Virus record (IMG/VR): IMGVR_UViG_2802429251_000007
Location: 1 to 30,664 of that record
Strand: one strand, 5' to 3'
Origin: a virus
Lineage: Duplodnaviria; Heunggongvirae; Uroviricota; Caudoviricetes
DNA length: 30,664 bases
Shown: positions 1,160 through 29,731 of the stretch, in pieces
Position numbering within the stretch: the stretch's first letter is position 1
How the letters are laid out: every line of letters starts with the position of its first letter
Position numbers and translations under genes: made by a program
Notes under the pieces: generated by a model
The model's input: the letters and a program-made list of their open reading frames with translations, nothing else
Databases searched by the model: none
Told to the model about the DNA's origin: nothing

Positions 1160-1277
1160 TGCTGCGGGTGCTTGAGGCTATCTACCTCGGGCATGAACAC
1201 CAACGGCAGATAGAGAAAAGCCCCAGTTAACATTACGCGTCCTGCAAGACGCTTAACATTAATCTGAGGCCAATTTC

Positions 1278-1490
1278 ATGCTAGACACATGTAGGTTAGC
1301 CTCTTACGTGCCGAAAGGCAAGGAGAAGCAGGCTATGAAGCAGCAAAAGGCGATGTTAATCGCCCTGATCGTCATCTGTTTAACCGTCATAGTGACGGCA
1401 CTGGCAACGAGGAAAGACCTCTGCGAGGTACGAATCCGTACCGGCCAGACGGAGGTCGCTGTCTTCGTAGACTACGAATCTAGAGAGTAA
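1278..1490 (+). CDS. mok: Mok-like reading frame, 70 aa. It is an in-frame N-terminal extension of the hok-like toxin, as MokC is for HokC.
   Basis: MLDTCRLASYVPKGKEKQA then MKQQKAM... mirrors the MokC layout MLNTCRVPLTDRKVKEKRAMKQHKAM... Confidence 0.5.
   Translation: MLDTCRLASYVPKGKEKQAMKQQKAMLIALIVICLTVIVTALATRKDLCEVRIRTGQTEVAVFVDYESRE
1335..1490 (+). CDS. hok: Hok/Gef-family type I toxin, 51 aa.
   Basis: MKQQKAMLIALIVICLTVIVTALATRKDLCEVRIRTGQTEVAVFVDYESRE is close to Gef/HokC (MKQHKAMIVALIVICITAVVAALVTRKDLCEVHIRTGQTEVAVFTAYESE). Confidence 0.85.
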   Translation: MKQQKAMLIALIVICLTVIVTALATRKDLCEVRIRTGQTEVAVFVDYESRE

Positions 1491-3385: not shown

Positions 3386-3411
3386 CTCAATCTGTTATCC
3401 GGGGCTATATT
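3382..3411 (+). promoter_or_regulatory. PR'-like late promoter: -35 TTGACT overlapping the Q stop, 18-nt spacer, -10 TATATT. Probable Q utilisation region.
   Basis: Hexamers read directly. Position after Q matches lambdoid PR'/qut. Confidence 0.45.
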
Positions 3412-3473
3412 CCTCACGCGCCAGCAAAATCTGGCGTCGGGATTGGCGTCCCGGATGTTTACGGAGCGATATG

Positions 3474-3495
3474 AGACGCGCCCGCGTCTTTTTTC
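3474..3495 (+). terminator. tR'-like rho-independent terminator. It would yield a short (about 75-nt) 6S-like late RNA unless Q acts.
   Basis: AGACGC-GCCC-GCGTCT stem-loop followed by TTTTTT. Confidence 0.6.
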
Positions 3496-3666
3496 ATATC
3501 GTTTGCACAGTCACATTCGCGATTTATGGCGGGCTGTGTGGGGGAGCCGAAAGGCTCGCCGGTTTCCGTACCCGGTTACGCCAACCCTGCACAGTTCGCC
3601 ACCAGTTCGATTGGCGTCGTCGGTGGCGATAATTTCCAAATGTACGGAGTTATCGTTATGACCACT

Positions 3667-5354: not shown

Positions 5355-5430
<76 letters not shown>

Positions 5431-5433
5431 TAT

Positions 5434-5508
<75 letters not shown>

Positions 5509-9873: not shown

Positions 9874-11342
9874 TGGCACGAAACAAACAAGCCCTGCGGC
9901 GAACTGCGCAGGCCACAGCTGATGGTTATGAGAATTTTATTGCCCGCGTAGGGATGCAGACACCTAACCAGCACTCAGCATCCACCTACCGGGCTAATTT
10001 TACCAGTCGTAACCGCATGCTGGTGGAATGGTCCTATCGTTCATCCTGGATCATCGGCGAAGCAGTCGATGCTATCCCGGATGATATGACCCGCAAAGGC
10101 ATTCGCATCACTTCGGAAATTGATGCAAAAGATCGCGGCATTCTCGAATCACAACTTGATGAGTTGCAAATCTGGGATGCGCTGAATGACGTGCTGAAAT
10201 GGTCTCGTCTCTATGGCGGTGCGGTTGGCTTCATCATGATCGAGGGGCAGGCACCAATGACCCCGCTGCGGCTCGAAACCATTGGAGAAGGCAAGTTTAA
10301 GGGCATTCTCCCGCTCGACCGCTGGATGATTAACCCGGTGCTGACCCGCCGCATTAAAGAGATGGGGCCGGATCTCGGCAAACCTGAGTTTTACGATGTG
10401 GTGACCACTGCAACGGGCATCCCGGCCTGGCGCATCCATCACAGCCGCCTGATTCGCTTCGATGGCGTCACGCTGCCATTCCAGCAGAAGATGACCGAGA
10501 ACGAATGGGGAATGTCGGTTGTAGAGCGAATCTGGGATCGGCTTACTGCGTTCGACAGCGCCACTGTCGGCGCGGCTCAGCTGGTCTACAAAGCGCATCT
10601 GCGCACCTACAGCGTGGAGAAGCTGCGCGAGATTATCGCGCTTGGTGGCCCAGCTTTCGAAGCGTTGCTGAAGAACATCGACCTGATCCGCCAGTTCCAG
10701 AGCAATGAAGGCATGACGCTCATGGACTCGCGGGATAAGTTTGAAACGCATCAGTACAGCTTCAGTGGTCTGGATGACATCCTATCGCAGTTTGCAGAAC
10801 AGATTAGTGGCGCTGTTGGTATTCCACTGGTGCGGTTGTTCGGACAGTCCCCGAAAGGATTTTCTACCGGTGATGCAGATCTTGCCAACTATTACGACCG
10901 GGTGAGCTCATTGCAGGAGCGCCGCTTACGGATGCCGATGCGCCGGATACTGGACATTATGCACCGCTCGGAACTCGGTAAGCCGCTGCCGGACGATTTC
11001 ACGTTTGAGTTTAACCCGCTCTGGCAAATGTCTGATGTCGATCGCTCAACGGTGGCGTTAAACACTACCAACGCAATCAGTACGGCGCTGGGTGATGGTC
11101 TGATGACACTGAAAGCCGCTATGACCGATTTGCGCGAAAATTCTGACGTAACCGGCATCGGGGCATCCATTACCGACGAGGACATAGAGAATGCCGAAGA
11201 CGAAGCGCCGCCAGGCATCGGCGAACTTGGCGACAAACCGCCAGAGTCGCCAGGCGGAGATCCGATATCGAACGAGCCTACGGCAGATAGCGCGGGCGGT
11301 CGGGGATATCGTAAATGGGCGCTACGATGGTTCAAACGATAG
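9873..11342 (+). CDS. Portal protein, DUF1073-type.
   Basis: Size and position after terL. Sequence resembles DUF1073 portal proteins. ATGA overlap with the terL stop. Confidence 0.7.
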   Translation: MARNKQALRRTAQATADGYENFIARVGMQTPNQHSASTYRANFTSRNRMLVEWSYRSSWIIGEAVDAIPDDMTRKGIRITSEIDAKDRGILESQLDELQIWDALNDVLKWSRLYGGAVGFIMIEGQAPMTPLRLETIGEGKFKGILPLDRWMINPVLTRRIKEMGPDLGKPEFYDVVTTATGIPAWRIHHSRLIRFDGVTLPFQQKMTENEWGMSVVERIWDRLTAFDSATVGAAQLVYKAHLRTYSVEKLREIIALGGPAFEALLKNIDLIRQFQSNEGMTLMDSRDKFETHQYSFSGLDDILSQFAEQISGAVGIPLVRLFGQSPKGFSTGDADLANYYDRVSSLQERRLRMPMRRILDIMHRSELGKPLPDDFTFEFNPLWQMSDVDRSTVALNTTNAISTALGDGLMTLKAAMTDLRENSDVTGIGASITDEDIENAEDEAPPGIGELGDKPPESPGGDPISNEPTADSAGGRGYRKWALRWFKR

Positions 11343-24487: not shown

Positions 24488-24840
24488 TGCGATACAGACG
24501 TGAAGACGCCGATGGCGATTACACCTTTGGCAGCGGTGATGATACCTGGCTGATTAACTCACCGGAGGCCGTGGCGCAGGCGGTAAAAACGCAATTCGAA
24601 TTGTGGTATGGGCAATGGTTTCTAGACACCACCGAAGGGACTCCGTGGATCCAGTCCGTACTCGGTAAGCAGAAGCCGGAAACCTACAATCTGGCGATCC
24701 GTAAGCGCATCCTCGAAACGCGGGGCGTTAAATCAATCCTCTCTTTCAATACTACAGTGGATACCACGACCCGACGTGTCATGTTTTCCGCTGAAATCGA
24801 CACTCTTTATGGAATAACGACTGTTACATCGGAGGCGTAA
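24487..24840 (+). CDS. Baseplate wedge protein, gpW/gp25-like, 117 aa.
   Basis: Size and position between the V-like and J-like genes. TGATG coupling. Confidence 0.5.
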   Translation: MRYRREDADGDYTFGSGDDTWLINSPEAVAQAVKTQFELWYGQWFLDTTEGTPWIQSVLGKQKPETYNLAIRKRILETRGVKSILSFNTTVDTTTRRVMFSAEIDTLYGITTVTSEA

Positions 24841-26039
24841 TGGCTCTGAACCTTGATTCTCTCGGTTTATCTGCAAAGGTAACCGCGGAGGGGATCAGTG
24901 CGCCTGATTATCAGACGATACTCAGCACCCTGATTGGCTATTTTCAGCAGATTTATGGCAGTGATGCCTACCTCGAACCGGACAGCAAAGACGGCCAGAT
25001 GGTGGCTCTGATGGCGCTGGCGATTCATGATGCCAATAATATGGCGATAACTGTCTACAACTGTTTTTCACCGGCAACCGGCTATGGGGCTGCACTGACC
25101 AGTAACGTGAAAATAAATGGTATTTCACGTAAAGGCGCAACGAATTCTACGGTTGATTTGCTTCTTACAGGAACTGCCGGAACAACCATCATTAATGGCA
25201 GCGTGAAAGACAGTAATAATGTGATATGGCGTTTGCCTGCTTCAGTGGTGGTCGGCGTGGATGGTACAGTGATGGCGACCGCAACATGTTCCGTCAGTGG
25301 TGCAGTGGCGGCGCTGGCTGGAACTATCACTGAAATTAATACGCCAACCCGTGGCTGGGTTTCGGTAACTAATCCTGCTGCGGCTACTGTGGGCACTCCG
25401 GCAGAAACTGACGCTGAGTTACGTATCCGCCAGTCGCAAAGTGTTGCGTTGCCATCAATAACCCCATTTGAAGCACTGGATGGTGCTGTTTCTAATGTTA
25501 CCGGTGTAACCCGCCACAAACTCTATGAAAACGATACTGGTTCGGAGGACGGTAACGGGTTACCGCCACACTCTGTTGCTGTAATTGTGGATGGCGGTGA
25601 TGTGACGGATATTGCTCAGGCTATCAGAGGGAATAAAGGCCAGGGGACAGCCACTCACGGTACAACATCCGTTACGGTTCCGGATAAATACGGCAATCCC
25701 CATGTAATCAAATTCTCGCGTTCCAGTGATGTACCTGTTTATGCCCGGATTAAATTAAAAGTTTTTACGGGTTATACCTCACAGATAGGGCAGCAGATCC
25801 AGCAGGCTATTTCCGGCTATATCAATAGTCTGATGATTGGTGATTCGGTCCTTTTAAGTCGCATTTACTCACCGGCGAATCTTGGCGTGGTGAGTGGCGG
25901 GAATGCACGCTATTACGATATTCAGGAACTGACGATTGGGAAATCCCCGGGGGCTTTGTCGTCATCAAACATTGATATCAGATACAACGAATCTGCGTCC
26001 TGTACCCCGGAAAATATCGTTATAACGGTGGAGTCATGA
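24840..26039 (+). CDS. Baseplate J-like protein (gpJ/gp6 family).
   Basis: 399 aa. Position and similarity to Baseplate_J proteins. Confidence 0.65.
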   Translation: MALNLDSLGLSAKVTAEGISAPDYQTILSTLIGYFQQIYGSDAYLEPDSKDGQMVALMALAIHDANNMAITVYNCFSPATGYGAALTSNVKINGISRKGATNSTVDLLLTGTAGTTIINGSVKDSNNVIWRLPASVVVGVDGTVMATATCSVSGAVAALAGTITEINTPTRGWVSVTNPAAATVGTPAETDAELRIRQSQSVALPSITPFEALDGAVSNVTGVTRHKLYENDTGSEDGNGLPPHSVAVIVDGGDVTDIAQAIRGNKGQGTATHGTTSVTVPDKYGNPHVIKFSRSSDVPVYARIKLKVFTGYTSQIGQQIQQAISGYINSLMIGDSVLLSRIYSPANLGVVSGGNARYYDIQELTIGKSPGALSSSNIDIRYNESASCTPENIVITVES

Positions 26040-26716
26040 GCAAATACACCGAACTAATCACGAACTACCACGCCACCAAACCTAAATTTCTTGCGCATGT
26101 TGATCTGATGACCCGGCCACTTATTGATGTTGCGGCTGCCACCAGAGGGCTGATTACTGCATTTGATATTGACTCTGCGGTTGGTGTGCAACTTGACATT
26201 CTTGGATTGTGGATCGGACGTAGCCGTGTTGTCAGCCAGCCTATCTCAGGTGTCTATTTCAGCTGGGATACCGACGGGCTTGGATATGATCAGGGGGTAT
26301 GGCGGGGACCATACGATCCTGATTCAGGATACATGTATCTCAGCGATGAAACTTATCGTGTCATTCTTAAAGCGAAGATTGCGATTAATAACTGGGACGG
26401 ACGGAATGATTCGCTTCCGGCAATTCTTGACGCTGCAACAGCAGGATCCGGGCTGCGAATGCAGATAGTCGATAACCAGGACATGACGATATCGGTCTGG
26501 GTCTTTCCTGATACTGATATTTCAGATGTATCGCGTGAGTTAATTGCGGCAATTAAACAGGGGTATCTCACAGTTAAAGCCGCCGGGGTTTGGGCGGGTG
26601 ACATTGAAACACCTTCGGTGAAAACCCCATCGGAAGGCTCAAAATTTTTTGGTTTTGATATGGATAACGAATTTATCAGTGGTTTTGATGTAGGGGCATG
26701 GGGAGTATTACTCTGA
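26036..26716 (+). CDS. Tail protein I-like (gpI / YmfQ-like, DUF2313).
   Basis: 226 aa. Follows the J-like gene and precedes the tail fibre, as in P2/Mu/e14. Confidence 0.6.
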
Positions 26717-27792
26717 TGGCAAAAAATGACTTTAAAGCATTCGCAACGGGTAAAAATGCCAATGTTATGCCGCAGGAGGAATGGGAAGCGTTGCCTGCGC
26801 TTTTATCCGGATTTACAGCAGGGAAAGCATCCAGTGCGCAAGTCAATAAGGTTATTCGGCAGGCCAGCTTTATTGCATCTGCAATAGCACAATATACAGC
26901 AAATGAAAGTGGACTGGATGTACAGGACGATGGCGATCAGGCCGGCTTTATCGCAAAAATGTCGTCTGCATTAGATAAGAACTATCAGAGAATTAATGCC
27001 ATACTTACCGCACTTGCTAATCTTTCAGCATCCGAAAACAAATTACCGTATTTTACCAATCAAGATACCGCTAATTTGGCTGACCTGACACAGGTTGGGC
27101 GAGATATTTTGGCAAAAAGCTCTGTTGCTGATGTCCTTAAATATCTTGGTCTGGAAGATAATTCGACCTTTCCTGTAGGTGCCCCGATCCCGTGGCCATC
27201 AGATACAGTTCCATCTGGTTATGCTCTGATGCAGGGACAGACTTTTGACAAGTCTGCATACCCGAAACTTGCAGCCGCTTATCCGTCAGGCGTGATCCCT
27301 GATATGCGTGGCTGGACGATTAAGGGCAAGCCCGCCAGTGGTCGTGCCGTATTGTCTCAGGAACAGGACGGCATTAAATCGCACACCCACAGCGCCAGCG
27401 TATCCAGTACGGATTTGGGTACGAAAACCACATCGTCGTTTGATTACGGGACGAAAACAACCTCACTATTTGACTATGGGACCAAAACTACCAGTAACGC
27501 CGGGAGTCACACGCATTCAATACCAACATCAGATGGTGCAAACCAGGGGGGGAAAATTCCACTGACATCTGGGCGTCTGGCAACTCAATATACATCAGCA
27601 ACAACAGGTTCCTCTGGCTCACATTCTCATACTGTAGGTATTGGTTCTCATCAGCACACTGTCGGTATTGGTGCACACACGCACTCCGTTGCGATTGGTT
27701 CACATGGACACACCATCACCGTTAACGCTGCTGGTAACGCGGAAAACACCGTCAAAAACATCGCATTTAACTATATTGTGAGGCTCGCATAA
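26716..27792 (+). CDS. Tail fibre protein with C-terminal HxH-repeat receptor-binding region.
   Basis: [36 protein letters not shown] repeats. TGATG-coupled start MAKNDFKAF. Confidence 0.8.
27413..27493 (+). repeat. Three imperfect tandem 27-nt repeats inside the tail fibre gene, encoding (L/F)DYGTKTTS.
   Basis: Peptide repeat [29 protein letters not shown] read from the translation. Confidence 0.6.
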
Positions 27793-28370
27793 TGGAATTC
27801 AGAATGAGTGAACAACCACAGACCATAAAAATTTATAATCTGCTGGCCGGAACTAATGAATTTATTGGTGAAGGTGATGCATACATTCCACCTCATACAG
27901 GTCTGCCAGCAAACAGTACCGATATTGCACCGCCAGATATTCCGGCTGGCTTCGTGGCTGTTTTCAACACTGATGAGGCATCGTGGCATCTCGTTGAAGA
28001 CCATCGGGGTAAAACCGTCTATGACGTGGCTTCCGGCGACGCGTTATTTATTTCTGAACTTGGCCCATTACCGGAAAATGTCACCTGGTTATCCCCGGAA
28101 GGGGAGTTTCAGAAGTGGAACGGTACATCTTGGGTGAAAGATGCAGAAGCAGAAAAACTGTTTCGGAGCCAGGAGGCGGAAGAAACAAAAAACAGCCTGA
28201 TGCAGGTAGCTAGCGAGCATATTGCGCCACTTCAGGATGCTGTAGATTTGGATATTGCGACGGAAGAAGAGGCATCGTTACTGGCTGCATGGAAGACATA
28301 TCGGGTATTGTTGAATCGTGTTGATACAACAGTAGCAGCGGATATTGAGTGGCCAGTCGCCCCACAATAA
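27792..28370 (+). CDS. tfa: Tail fibre assembly chaperone, lambda Tfa-like.
   Basis: [59 protein letters not shown]... is nearly collinear with lambda Tfa. Confidence 0.9.
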
Positions 28371-28379
28371 AAAGAAAAA

Positions 28380-28410
28380 GCCATCGATAGAAATATCGAT
28401 GGCTTTATGT
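28380..28410. terminator. Bidirectional terminator between convergent tfa and the acetyltransferase gene. Stronger for the minus strand.
   Basis: GCCATCGAT-AGAAAT-ATCGATGGC hairpin. T5CT5 run on the minus-strand side, TTT on the plus side. Confidence 0.7.
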
Positions 28411-28413
28411 GCT

Positions 28414-28986
28414 CTATTTATACAATACAACACCGCTCTTTTTAGTTATATATGTGCAGTTCGATGGTATATCTTTATTTATAAAAGACATTGCGCCTAT
28501 TTTTACATTATCCCCAATTTTACGTGATAATCCAATGATGCAACAATTAGCTCCGATATCAACGTTACTACCAATTTTTACTCTTGAACCAGGTATGTCA
28601 CCATCTATCTGTCCAATCGTAGTATTCTGTCGTAACACCAGATTTTCACCAGCATCAACAGCAAAATGAACAACAATTCCAGCGTGATGGGGAATTGTTA
28701 GCCCTTTTCCAATTTTTGCTCCCAGTCCAATCTCGCAACCAAATTTGTTAATTATTTTATTGTTTAACTTTTTAGCAGCTTTCTTATGTAATTTATTACC
28801 ATTAATATACATTTCGTTAGCCAGCCGCCACCAGAAAAGGAAATTCCTGTTACGTTGTTTTTTTTCTCTGAAAAGCCTCCAGATATCCATATACTCCCGC
28901 CGTATTACTTCAGATTTCCAAAAGCTTTTTAAATCAGAAGAATTCCCAAGTAAAACAAAATGAATTGCTATTAAGTAAGATAACAC
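28414..28986 (-). CDS. Hexapeptide-repeat (left-handed beta-helix) acetyltransferase, CysE/serine O-acetyltransferase-like, 190 aa. AT-rich cargo.
   Basis: IGLGAKIGKGLTIPHHAGIVV...IGSNVDIGANCCIIG...IGDNVKIGAMS are hexapeptide repeats with a CysE-like core. GTG start 6 nt after an AAGGAG Shine-Dalgarno. Very low GC. Confidence 0.7.
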   Translation of the reverse strand: MLSYLIAIHFVLLGNSSDLKSFWKSEVIRREYMDIWRLFREKKQRNRNFLFWWRLANEMYINGNKLHKKAAKKLNNKIINKFGCEIGLGAKIGKGLTIPHHAGIVVHFAVDAGENLVLRQNTTIGQIDGDIPGSRVKIGSNVDIGANCCIIGLSRKIGDNVKIGAMSFINKDIPSNCTYITKKSGVVLYK

Positions 28987-29015
28987 GATAATCTCCTTAA
29001 TTATTACTTTCGACC

Positions 29016-29045
29016 ATATTAGCCCTAAATTTAATGAAGTGTAAA
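29016..29045 (-). promoter_or_regulatory. Candidate sigma70 promoter for the acetyltransferase: minus-strand -35 TTTACA, 18-nt spacer, -10 TAATAT.
   Basis: Hexamers read on the reverse complement. Confidence 0.4.
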
Positions 29046-29138
29046 ATCTGGTTGTTTGTTATTTAAAAGCTAAGTTCGTGATACTTTACGGATGCTGAGG
29101 AGAGCATTATACGATATTTTTCTGCACACTCATAGTAA

Positions 29139-29267
29139 CAAACACCAGAACAATGGGCGCAGGCCGGGCGATTAATTGCATCAGGCGTTCCTCGCCAGAA
29201 GGTGGCTATTATCTATGATGTTGGTGTGTCAACTTTGTATAAGAGGTTTCCGGTCGGAGATAAATGA
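29139..29267 (+). pseudogene. pin: 3' remnant (about 42 codons) of a Pin/Gin/Hin-family DNA invertase: the C-terminal HTH only.
   Basis: Translation TPEQWAQAGRLIASGVPRQKVAIIYDVGVSTLYKRFPVGDK* closely matches the C-terminus of E. coli e14 Pin. Stop codons lie immediately upstream. Confidence 0.75.
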
Positions 29268-29564
29268 AACCGTAGCACGTCGTATGCAAGAACGTGCCAC
29301 GGCTGGCTGATGGACGTTCGATAGCGCGAGTTTGAATGAAAATCAGCCGGCGATGATTTTACATAATTGCTACGGAATTATTCAATACAGGAATTGCTTG
29401 TGTATGCATGGATTGACCTGAAATATTCCCGAAAATTTCTCTAAAAAACTCGAAAAAAATGGTAACTAATTGAATGCATTGGTATGCAATGCTATGTGTT
29501 CAGGATTGAAAAATGCGCGCTTTTTTATTTAATATATTGATTTTAAATGATTTTATTTCTCGTT

Positions 29565-29597
29565 GACGAATACAGGAATCGTGTTCGGTCTCTTTTT
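29565..29597 (+). ncRNA. sdsR: 3' terminator fragment of the sRNA SdsR (RyeB). Probable prophage attachment-site core and host junction.
   Basis: GACGAATACAGGAATCGTGTTCGGTCTCTTTTT matches the 3' end of E. coli SdsR (…GACCGAATACAGGAATCGTATTCGGTCTCTTTTT) with two differences. The upstream SdsR body is absent. pphA follows, as in E. coli K-12. Confidence 0.65.
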
Positions 29598-29731
29598 ATC
29601 TGTTAAAAGCCAGAAGCATTCCCTTCGCTGACTTTATAGTCAACCATAACACACACTCTACTGTCTGAGTCCAGCGTTTTTTAACATTCTTGTTAAGATT
29701 ATGTGATCTTTAGCGCGGGAGGAAAATATTG

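Follow-up and report, generated by a model that had tools for sequence, protein, structure and literature searches.

A tail-fibre module with a CysE-like acetyltransferase at the place of a Pin invertible segment in an Escherichia coli prophage

Introduction

What becomes of a tail-fibre switch once its invertible segment is gone, and what does the gene found in its place do? These questions are raised by a locus in IMG/VR virus record IMGVR_UViG_2802429251_000007 (positions 1 to 30,664; hereafter the window, meaning the whole stretch of 30,664 nucleotides). The right end of the window contains the tail genes of a myovirus-type Escherichia coli prophage, followed by chromosomal pphA and yebW; core-genome DNA starts again at about 29555-29567, which places the locus within the last 1.2 kb of the prophage. 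There, a tail fibre gene, its assembly gene tfa, a reverse-strand gene for an acetyltransferase and a remnant of the invertase gene pin follow one another.

A preliminary description of this DNA had read the order fibre, tfa, element, pin as that of the Pin, Gin and Cin invertible segments, and had proposed that a single event brought in the acetyltransferase as cargo and removed host-range switching. Here we find the first statement borne out and the second in need of replacement. The explanation that we hold, on balance, to be probable is that a fibre module took over from the invertible segment and that its acetyltransferase would O-acetylate the lipopolysaccharide (LPS) of the lysogen, likely in the core.

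Results

The module stands where a sister prophage keeps an intact switch

Strain FDAARGOS_1287 carries a sister prophage (L094) that shares the baseplate genes and the pphA integration site and has an intact Pin system. In it, fibre gene and tfa are followed by an inverted tfa', an inverted fibre C-terminus (Sv') and an intact pinE of 184 codons, with two pix sites (pixL and pixR), CTCTCGAAAACCTTGGTTTGGGAGAA and TTCTCCCAAACCAACGTTTATGAAAA, 1.8 kb apart. A full invertible segment is thus found exactly where the gene order had suggested one; the acetyltransferase gene is not present in L094.

Aligned with this prophage, the window is 97.9% identical up to position 26876 and 96.3% identical from 29142, with nothing alignable between them. 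The replaced block (26877-29141) is contiguous, measures 2.27 kb and starts about 170 bp before the position of pixL in L094. The segment is gone, as had been supposed, but its place is not taken by the acetyltransferase alone: the block also comprises tfa and most of the fibre gene, from about codon 54.

Of pin, only codons 143-184 are left in the window, with no catalytic domain. This stub consists of exactly 42 in-frame codons and matches the helix-turn-helix (HTH) family HTH_7 (1.9e-10); it aligns well with Pin, being 95% identical to PinE residues 143-184 in protein and 93.7% identical to pinE in DNA, and the description of the gene as reduced to its C-terminal HTH codons stands. Residual gix- or pix-like crossover sites, which had been suggested as worth looking for, are found neither in the fibre gene nor upstream of the stub. 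A search for the AAACC-NN-GGTTT core with one mismatch allowed matched the window only at 10380 and 18544, no more than chance would give; in L094, L011, L012 and L007, a search of this kind did recover the real sites. Likewise, the region contains no second tfa and no inverted fibre arm, the acetyltransferase gene being the only one there on the reverse strand. A 14-nt inverted repeat (27025/29085) was judged to be due to chance. In every copy that we examined, the unit of fibre tip, tfa, acetyltransferase and pin stub has a single orientation.

Judging by these comparisons, the module replaced a Pin-driven invertible host-range segment that sister prophages keep at the same site. With no intact invertase, crossover sites or second arm, the locus can be taken to be no longer invertible and host-range switching to be lost, as first proposed, with one fibre type fixed.

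The features concerned are as follows, in window coordinates:

24840-26039: baseplate J/gp47 gene
26036-26716: DUF2612 wedge gene
26716-27792 (alternative upstream ATG at 26698), plus strand: tail fibre gene, with a Collar domain (2e-12)
26877-29141: block substituting the invertible segment and pin codons 1-142 of L094 (counterpart in L094, 6443-8910)
27792-28370, plus strand: tfa, tail fibre assembly (chaperone) gene, Caudo_TAP (1.4e-41)
28377-28406: hairpin of 13 bp between the convergent tfa and acetyltransferase genes
28414-28986, minus strand: acetyltransferase open reading frame of 190 codons with a GTG start and Hexapep repeats
28993-28998, minus strand: Shine-Dalgarno sequence AAGGAG, 6 nt upstream of the GTG, identified by inspection
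29016-29045, minus strand: promoter-like TTTACA-18-TAATAT, a consensus match only
29139-29267, plus strand: pin pseudogene stub, codons 143-184, HTH_7; homology to pin begins at 29142
29268-29362: module tail; homology with lambdoid prophages at yecD stops at 29362
29275-29555: attachment site (att)-proximal right arm of the prophage

The fibre reading frame is continuous (364 or 358 aa) and chimeric, with three parts that differ in origin, ending at 26876, spanning 26877-27170 and starting at 27171. From 27171, at about residue 158, where the Collar domain starts, it encodes a tip that is widespread in P2-like, P1-like and lambdoid phages. In 13E0780 and RM8082, the orthologous fibre gene is labelled a partial pseudogene by PGAP, which calls only its C-terminal part. 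The very low GC content noticed at the outset is also seen here: 0.33-0.37 across 28350-29250 as against about 0.45-0.53 in the tail genes.

The pin truncation is older than this prophage

Did the acetyltransferase come alone? A single local insertion or deletion could have brought it in by itself, at the expense of the alternative fibre arm and of the 5' three-quarters of pin. An intact segment did once lie here, as L094 shows, and the difference from it is one contiguous block, such as a single recombination in the lineage could leave. Against this, the block also has a different fibre body and a different tfa, and its parts occur elsewhere. At yecD, lambdoid prophages (L190, L191) with the gene order gpJ, lom, stf, tfa, acetyltransferase, pin stub and dinI show the very same bases at the junction between the upstream region of the acetyltransferase and pin codon 143, and the same module is found with 98.3% identity in a prophage at yfhH (L002). 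In addition, P2-like and P1-like phages already possess the tfa/acetyltransferase pair. We therefore consider a local event improbable.

Since the junction is identical in prophages at another site, the truncation would predate the arrival of the module in this prophage: on the available alignments it happened once, earlier and elsewhere, and the module (about 27171-29362) later moved between backbones. Given the shared junction and the pre-existing pair, the cargo would be a multi-gene module that arrived ready-made, and the proposal that one local event both brought in the cargo and removed switching is not supported.

The wider distribution of the gene was followed in 62 IMG/VR loci that contain a close homologue. 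In all 59 with sequence on that side, tfa is convergent with the acetyltransferase at a distance of about 50 bp. The other flank holds P2-type tail genes in 44 loci, the U' gene of P1-like phage-plasmids in 11 and a pin stub in one; the P2-like loci correspond to the Z/fun hot spot, which follows the fibre genes, as in prophage Sp13 of strain Sakai. Among 5426 complete E. coli genomes, 530 contain this allele of the acetyltransferase, at 533 places in chromosomes and 66 in plasmids; all copies for which we examined the surroundings lie in a prophage, a phage or a plasmid. The gene is thus accessory and not a core gene of the locus. The tfa/acetyltransferase pair, mostly located in P2-like prophages, is present in about 10% of complete E. 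coli genomes, and 'unusual', as the gene had been called in this position, is too strong a word for it.

Nor is the gene bound to the loss of switching. In the P1-like phage JL22 it lies between U' and tfa within the C segment, which is bounded by cix sites, has inverted repeats of 602 nt and comes with an intact cin. The 5.46-kb block from cix to cix (L007:2402-7865) is inverted in a 98.7%-identical IMG/VR contig (L166:4402-9865). The C segment, seen in both orientations, flips with the acetyltransferase as passenger, and the gene is therefore compatible with switching.

As for the route into the present prophage, the module would have entered by a double homologous crossover, the left one in the conserved 5' end of the fibre gene and the right one between the stub of the donor and the intact pin of the resident. 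Such an arrival is probable because the stub (29142-29267) is a recombination mosaic of pin alleles (alignment A2) and because it is decaying. Within the 3' half of the stub, the window copy resembles K-12 pinE and the 13E0780 copy resembles that of RM8082.

The stub itself appears to be a dead scar, and its remaining role is likely that of a homology arm for module exchange. That it works as a small HTH protein, for instance by binding pix sites and blocking other invertases, is scarcely credible even though it starts at the HTH domain boundary and the points at which two different acetyltransferase alleles meet pin lie only about 3 nt apart: its frame begins with no ATG, GTG or TTG and directly follows a stop at 29136-29138, the first in-frame GTG would leave only about 21 aa, and the copies in 13E0780, L190, L191 and IAI39 contain in-frame stops.

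Switching appears to have been lost repeatedly with an acyltransferase kept

Three further cases parallel the one in the window. In E. coli IAI39 (L013:3756-4781), a prophage at ssrA has the order fibre, tfa, reverse-strand cargo and a pin stub with an internal stop. Its stub is longer, with at least 47 codons, and its cargo is a non-homologous membrane acyltransferase of 341 aa from the Acyl_transf_3 family (2.6e-26). After this slot, the IAI39 prophage continues with a GIY-YIG gene and a type II restriction-modification pair.

In RM8082 (L001:7795-8340), at the pphA site, the gene next to the pin stub is a second acetyltransferase allele, 37% identical to the first, and the unit of this allele and the stub occurs in 59 complete genomes. 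Tyr-Leu replaces the His-His motif of the family in this allele, which is thereby devoid of the catalytic histidine; it may be inactive or may carry out a different chemistry.

In four P1-like elements (L005, L008, L125, L127), a deletion has removed cin, S' and the 5' part of U' (JL22 position 1431 joined to 4309), leaving a truncated U', the acetyltransferase, tfa and S. This looks like an independent loss of switching in which the acetyltransferase-linked arm was kept. From the cases in IAI39, RM8082 and the P1-like plasmids, it follows that switching was in all appearance lost repeatedly with retention of the arm linked to an acyltransferase.

The homology to pin in RM8082 begins 3 nt from the junction in the window. 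The junction site, CCCAAAC-TT-ACACC, bears a weak likeness to a pix half-site, and one may speculate that Pin itself made the truncations at a quasi-site inside its own gene. When scored with a position weight matrix derived from six genuine pix/cix half-sites, the pin-internal motif reaches about 5 bits as against 12-15 bits for real sites; it ranks second in the K-12 pin allele only and falls outside the top 8 in L094 and L012. We count this result as no support for a quasi-site as the reason for the near-coincidence of the two junctions.

The acetyltransferase has a CysE-like fold and its own terminator

The preliminary description had assigned the 190-residue product to the left-handed beta-helix acetyltransferases with a CysE-like core, and the structural model agrees, N-terminal domain included. 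The AlphaFold model, computed with 67 homologues, has a predicted local distance difference test score (pLDDT) of 96.3 and shows five N-terminal helices (residues 2-82) followed by a left-handed beta-helix. When it is compared to the Protein Data Bank (PDB) with Foldseek, the top 50 matches are all serine acetyltransferases, with a template modelling score (TM-score) on the query of 0.62-0.75. By PDB sequence comparison, the closest solved relatives are again all CysE (best 1e-13); no polysialic-acid O-acetyltransferase chain is found among the 37 matches.

Family assignment is less specific: Pfam recognises only Hexapep and Hexapep_2, in PHROGs the protein falls into phrog_2154 (1.7e-84), a family without assigned function, and PGAP names the gene 'serine acetyltransferase'. 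In an alignment with CysE of N. gonorrhoeae, His100 corresponds to the histidine of the 'DH' motif and Glu85 to the aspartate of 'VDIHP'. His100 is conserved in at least 90% of the acetyltransferase family, and the catalytic pair Glu85/His100 is retained in the window.

Across seven alleles of the acetyltransferase, the ratio of nonsynonymous to synonymous substitution rates (dN/dS) is 0.05-0.21, the mark of purifying selection. The gene thus appears to be intact and selectively maintained cargo. In the literature, it has been recorded as unexplained (PMC9603915) and listed as a 'fitness' gene (PMC6456863); we found no experimental work on the family there.

The gene has its own terminator and probably its own promoter. 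The hairpin at 28377-28406 (13 bp, -19.5 kcal/mol) is strongly non-random (z = -6.35) and is followed by a clean T-run on the acetyltransferase strand. It had been called strong and bidirectional: its strength holds, but on the tfa strand it has only a short U-rich tail (UUUAU). The promoter proposed earlier is indeed present at 29045->29016(-) and matches 9 of 12 consensus positions; as evidence it is weak, with 11 promoter-like sites over the AT-rich stretch where shuffling leads one to expect 5.5 +/- 2.8, an excess of about twofold. As in an autonomous unit of the moron type, the gene combines deviant GC content and a terminator with its lack in the sister prophage, the promoter being known by consensus only.

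Neighbours of related genes point to LPS

How might such an enzyme serve the prophage? We propose that it would be expressed in the lysogen from the prophage, use acetyl-CoA and O-acetylate an LPS sugar at the cytoplasmic face of the inner membrane. The most likely acceptor would be the core oligosaccharide, and the surface receptor of P1-, P2- and Mu-type fibres would be altered in consequence, leading to superinfection exclusion or antigenic conversion.

LPS O-acetylation is favoured by the gene neighbours of relatives, by the analogous case of IAI39 and by the receptor of a related phage. The waa cluster of Leminorella grimontii includes a homologue with 48% identity, the gene order being WaaB, WaaI, RfaY, WaaZ, acetyltransferase, RfaL; each of the five neighbours exceeds an NCBIfam cut-off. 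The gene in the window itself lies outside any polysaccharide cluster. Prophages of Xenorhabdus bovienii and of Morganella that share the wedge/J baseplate have their homologue in a cargo region beyond the tail-fibre gene, bounded by an integrase in Xenorhabdus and flanked by HicA/HicB in Morganella. The co-cargo there is either a GT25 LPS glycosyltransferase (1.6e-35) or a protein of the GT9 heptosyltransferase family (6.5e-8). Two homologues from the Pseudomonas group adjoin Kdo kinase-, carbamoyltransferase- and GT2 glycosyltransferase-like genes; these neighbourhoods, although the hits are weak, look like a core-oligosaccharide cluster.

The cargo that IAI39 carries in the corresponding slot is of the family Acyl_transf_3, which is that of O-antigen acetylases such as Oac. 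Finally, phage PhiNP carries a homologue of the acetyltransferase, and its receptor is the LPS core (PMC6456863).

Outside E. coli, the homologue in Intestinirhabdus alba (L193/L194) is an isolated gene with yebW on one side and the ugd/arn lipid A modification genes on the other. It may be the relic of an old prophage end, in the same neighbourhood as the E. coli integration site.

Several observations weigh against LPS as the target. Many homologues occupy uninformative places, such as orphan islands, an enteropathogenic E. coli (EPEC) plasmid by bfp or a prophage end by copA. The profile search of genome contigs returned mostly distant, unrelated hexapeptide proteins and about 12 usable loci, themselves mostly orphan islands. 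Only one non-phage homologue is clearly in an LPS-core cluster, the Pseudomonas cases being weak family matches. The linked fibre tip varies (63-100% identity), so that the enzyme is not tightly matched to one tip, and the promoter is a chance-level consensus match. We know of no description of O-acetylation in the LPS core of E. coli. Furthermore, the Z/fun hot spot of P2-like phages also carries defence genes (bioRxiv 10.1101/2024.10.15.618418).

The acceptor could also be another polysaccharide precursor, namely an O-antigen unit, colanic acid (compare WcaB), enterobacterial common antigen (ECA) or capsule. The best NCBIfam matches of the protein, EpsC, cysE and WcaB, include two exopolysaccharide acetyltransferases, EpsC (5e-21) and WcaB (1.5e-14), and the IAI39 analogue belongs to a family of O-antigen acetylases. 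However, the scores are far below the cut-offs, with 75.1 bits against 150 for the EpsC model and 53.8 against 196 and 53.1 against 194.65 bits for the two WcaB models. The hosts have many O serotypes (O157, O111, O103, O45), which argues for a conserved acceptor, and the neighbours and co-cargo (GT9, GT25, waa genes) are of the core type. Such an acceptor therefore seems unlikely to us, if still worth considering.

A role in anti-phage defence or counter-defence, through acetylation of a small molecule, a nucleotide or a protein, is more doubtful. The gene is of low GC content and mobile, and its place in P2-like prophages is the Z/fun hot spot, the known site of defence cargo mentioned above. 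Yet it is a single gene without a partner, its relatives accompany LPS genes, and a scan against PADLOC-DB 2.0 matched no family even at E <= 1.

Very unlikely, lastly, is a genuine serine O-acetyltransferase that would boost cysteine synthesis for the phage or the lysogen, in spite of the CysE fold, the CysE nearest solved structures and the preserved catalytic histidine with its acidic partner. The protein obtains 62.3 bits with the cysE model TIGR01172 (cut-off 210.65) and 40.2 bits with the CysE model NF008349 (cut-off 397). In CysE, the aspartate before the catalytic histidine and an Arg-His pair bind serine; in our alignment with the gonococcal enzyme, the former is replaced by Pro99 and the latter by Ser134-Arg135. 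The helical domain of five helices is also some 60 residues shorter (about 82 aa as against about 140 in CysE), and the protein stops about 10 residues past the last strand of the beta-helix, lacking the C-terminal (CysK-binding) tail. With the serine-binding positions replaced, the helical domain shortened and the tail missing, the protein is unlikely to serve as the serine acetyltransferase of the cysteine pathway, and its database name is very probably wrong.

Surroundings of the module

Downstream of the stub, 29275-29555 is about 96% identical in an unrelated lambdoid prophage that carries nleG7 (L095), also at pphA; this stretch is probably a common att-proximal arm. A scan of the window with Rfam detected no RNA family in 28371-29700. 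SdsR/RyeA, a small RNA (sRNA) pair that we take to neighbour pphA, was undetected in the window by the same scan. A full-length match to Rfam IS009 (RF02111; 189 bits) at 28135-28333 lies wholly within the 3' end of the tfa coding sequence, and the model seems to capture conserved tfa coding DNA here and not an intergenic sRNA.

Farther from the locus, three stretches of the window (1166-1340, 3405-3606 and 5355-5508) correspond to RNA elements. These are a sok antitoxin RNA (hok presumably alongside), a C4-type antisense RNA with a1/b1 targets and isrK, that is, immunity elements in the style of P1/P7, and a tRNA-Thr(TGT)/tRNA-Gly(TCC) pair.

Discussion

The locus shares the position of the Din-family segments (e14 P/Pin, Mu G/Gin, P1 C/Cin), with fibre, tfa, segment and invertase in this order. 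It differs from them in that crossover sites and a second fibre arm are missing here and that pin has lost its catalytic domain along with its 5' part, where the enhancer lies.

The acetyltransferase is 88-94% identical in protein to those of JL22 (there called 'sacF'), vB_EcoM-Ro157c2YLVW and Sakai Sp13 (ECs_2638), and the convergent tfa, the spacer of about 50 bp and the hairpin are all the same as in the P1-like and P2-like modules. The contexts differ. In JL22 the gene is the passenger of a working invertible segment with an intact cin, and in P2-like prophages tail genes, and not pin, come after it; only the present lineage and some lambdoid prophages have the pin stub.

As cargo at the fibre/att end of a temperate phage, with a predicted role in the acetylation of surface glycans, the gene resembles those of Oac (Sf6), OafA and NeuO (CUS-3), and in IAI39 the same slot next to a pin stub is even filled by an Acyl_transf_3 gene. 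The window enzyme is unlike Oac and OafA in not being an integral membrane Acyl_transf_3 protein. That a prophage may encode a soluble hexapeptide enzyme is known from NeuO, although the CysE-type helical domain found here sets the window enzyme apart from NeuO/MAT-type enzymes.

With CysE, WcaB and EpsC, on the other hand, the protein shares the succession of a helical N-terminal domain and a left-handed beta-helix, as well as the 'FWWRLA' helix and the catalytic motif G-x-[DE]-I ... H-x-x-G. It departs from them by scoring under every curated cut-off, by its shorter N-terminal domain and by its phage context, and from CysE in particular by the missing serine-binding residues and C-terminal tail.

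Altogether, this is an already annotated, common and functionally uncharacterised item of phage cargo in a decayed example of a well-known switch. We tentatively raise a broader idea, which we would not yet call likely: the tfa-linked enzymes of CysE fold may form an unrecognised class of soluble phage conversion enzymes that work from the cytoplasmic side, O-acetylate the LPS core as the receptor of P1/P2/Mu-type fibres and are physically coupled to a receptor-binding tip and its chaperone. If so, a phage would gain a new fibre and the receptor-masking function that goes with it in a single recombination event.

The gene is carried by about a tenth of complete E. coli genomes, including many Shiga toxin-producing E. 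coli (STEC; O157:H7, O111, O103, O45). The locus illustrates how an invertible switch may decay, with a fixed fibre module overwriting it and the leftover 3' end of the invertase gene turning into a recombination arm. If LPS is indeed acetylated, phage susceptibility would be affected, including that to P1-based transduction tools and to therapeutic phages that use the core as receptor, as would serology and innate immune recognition. The evolution of host-range modules would then involve a tip, its chaperone and a receptor modifier that move together.

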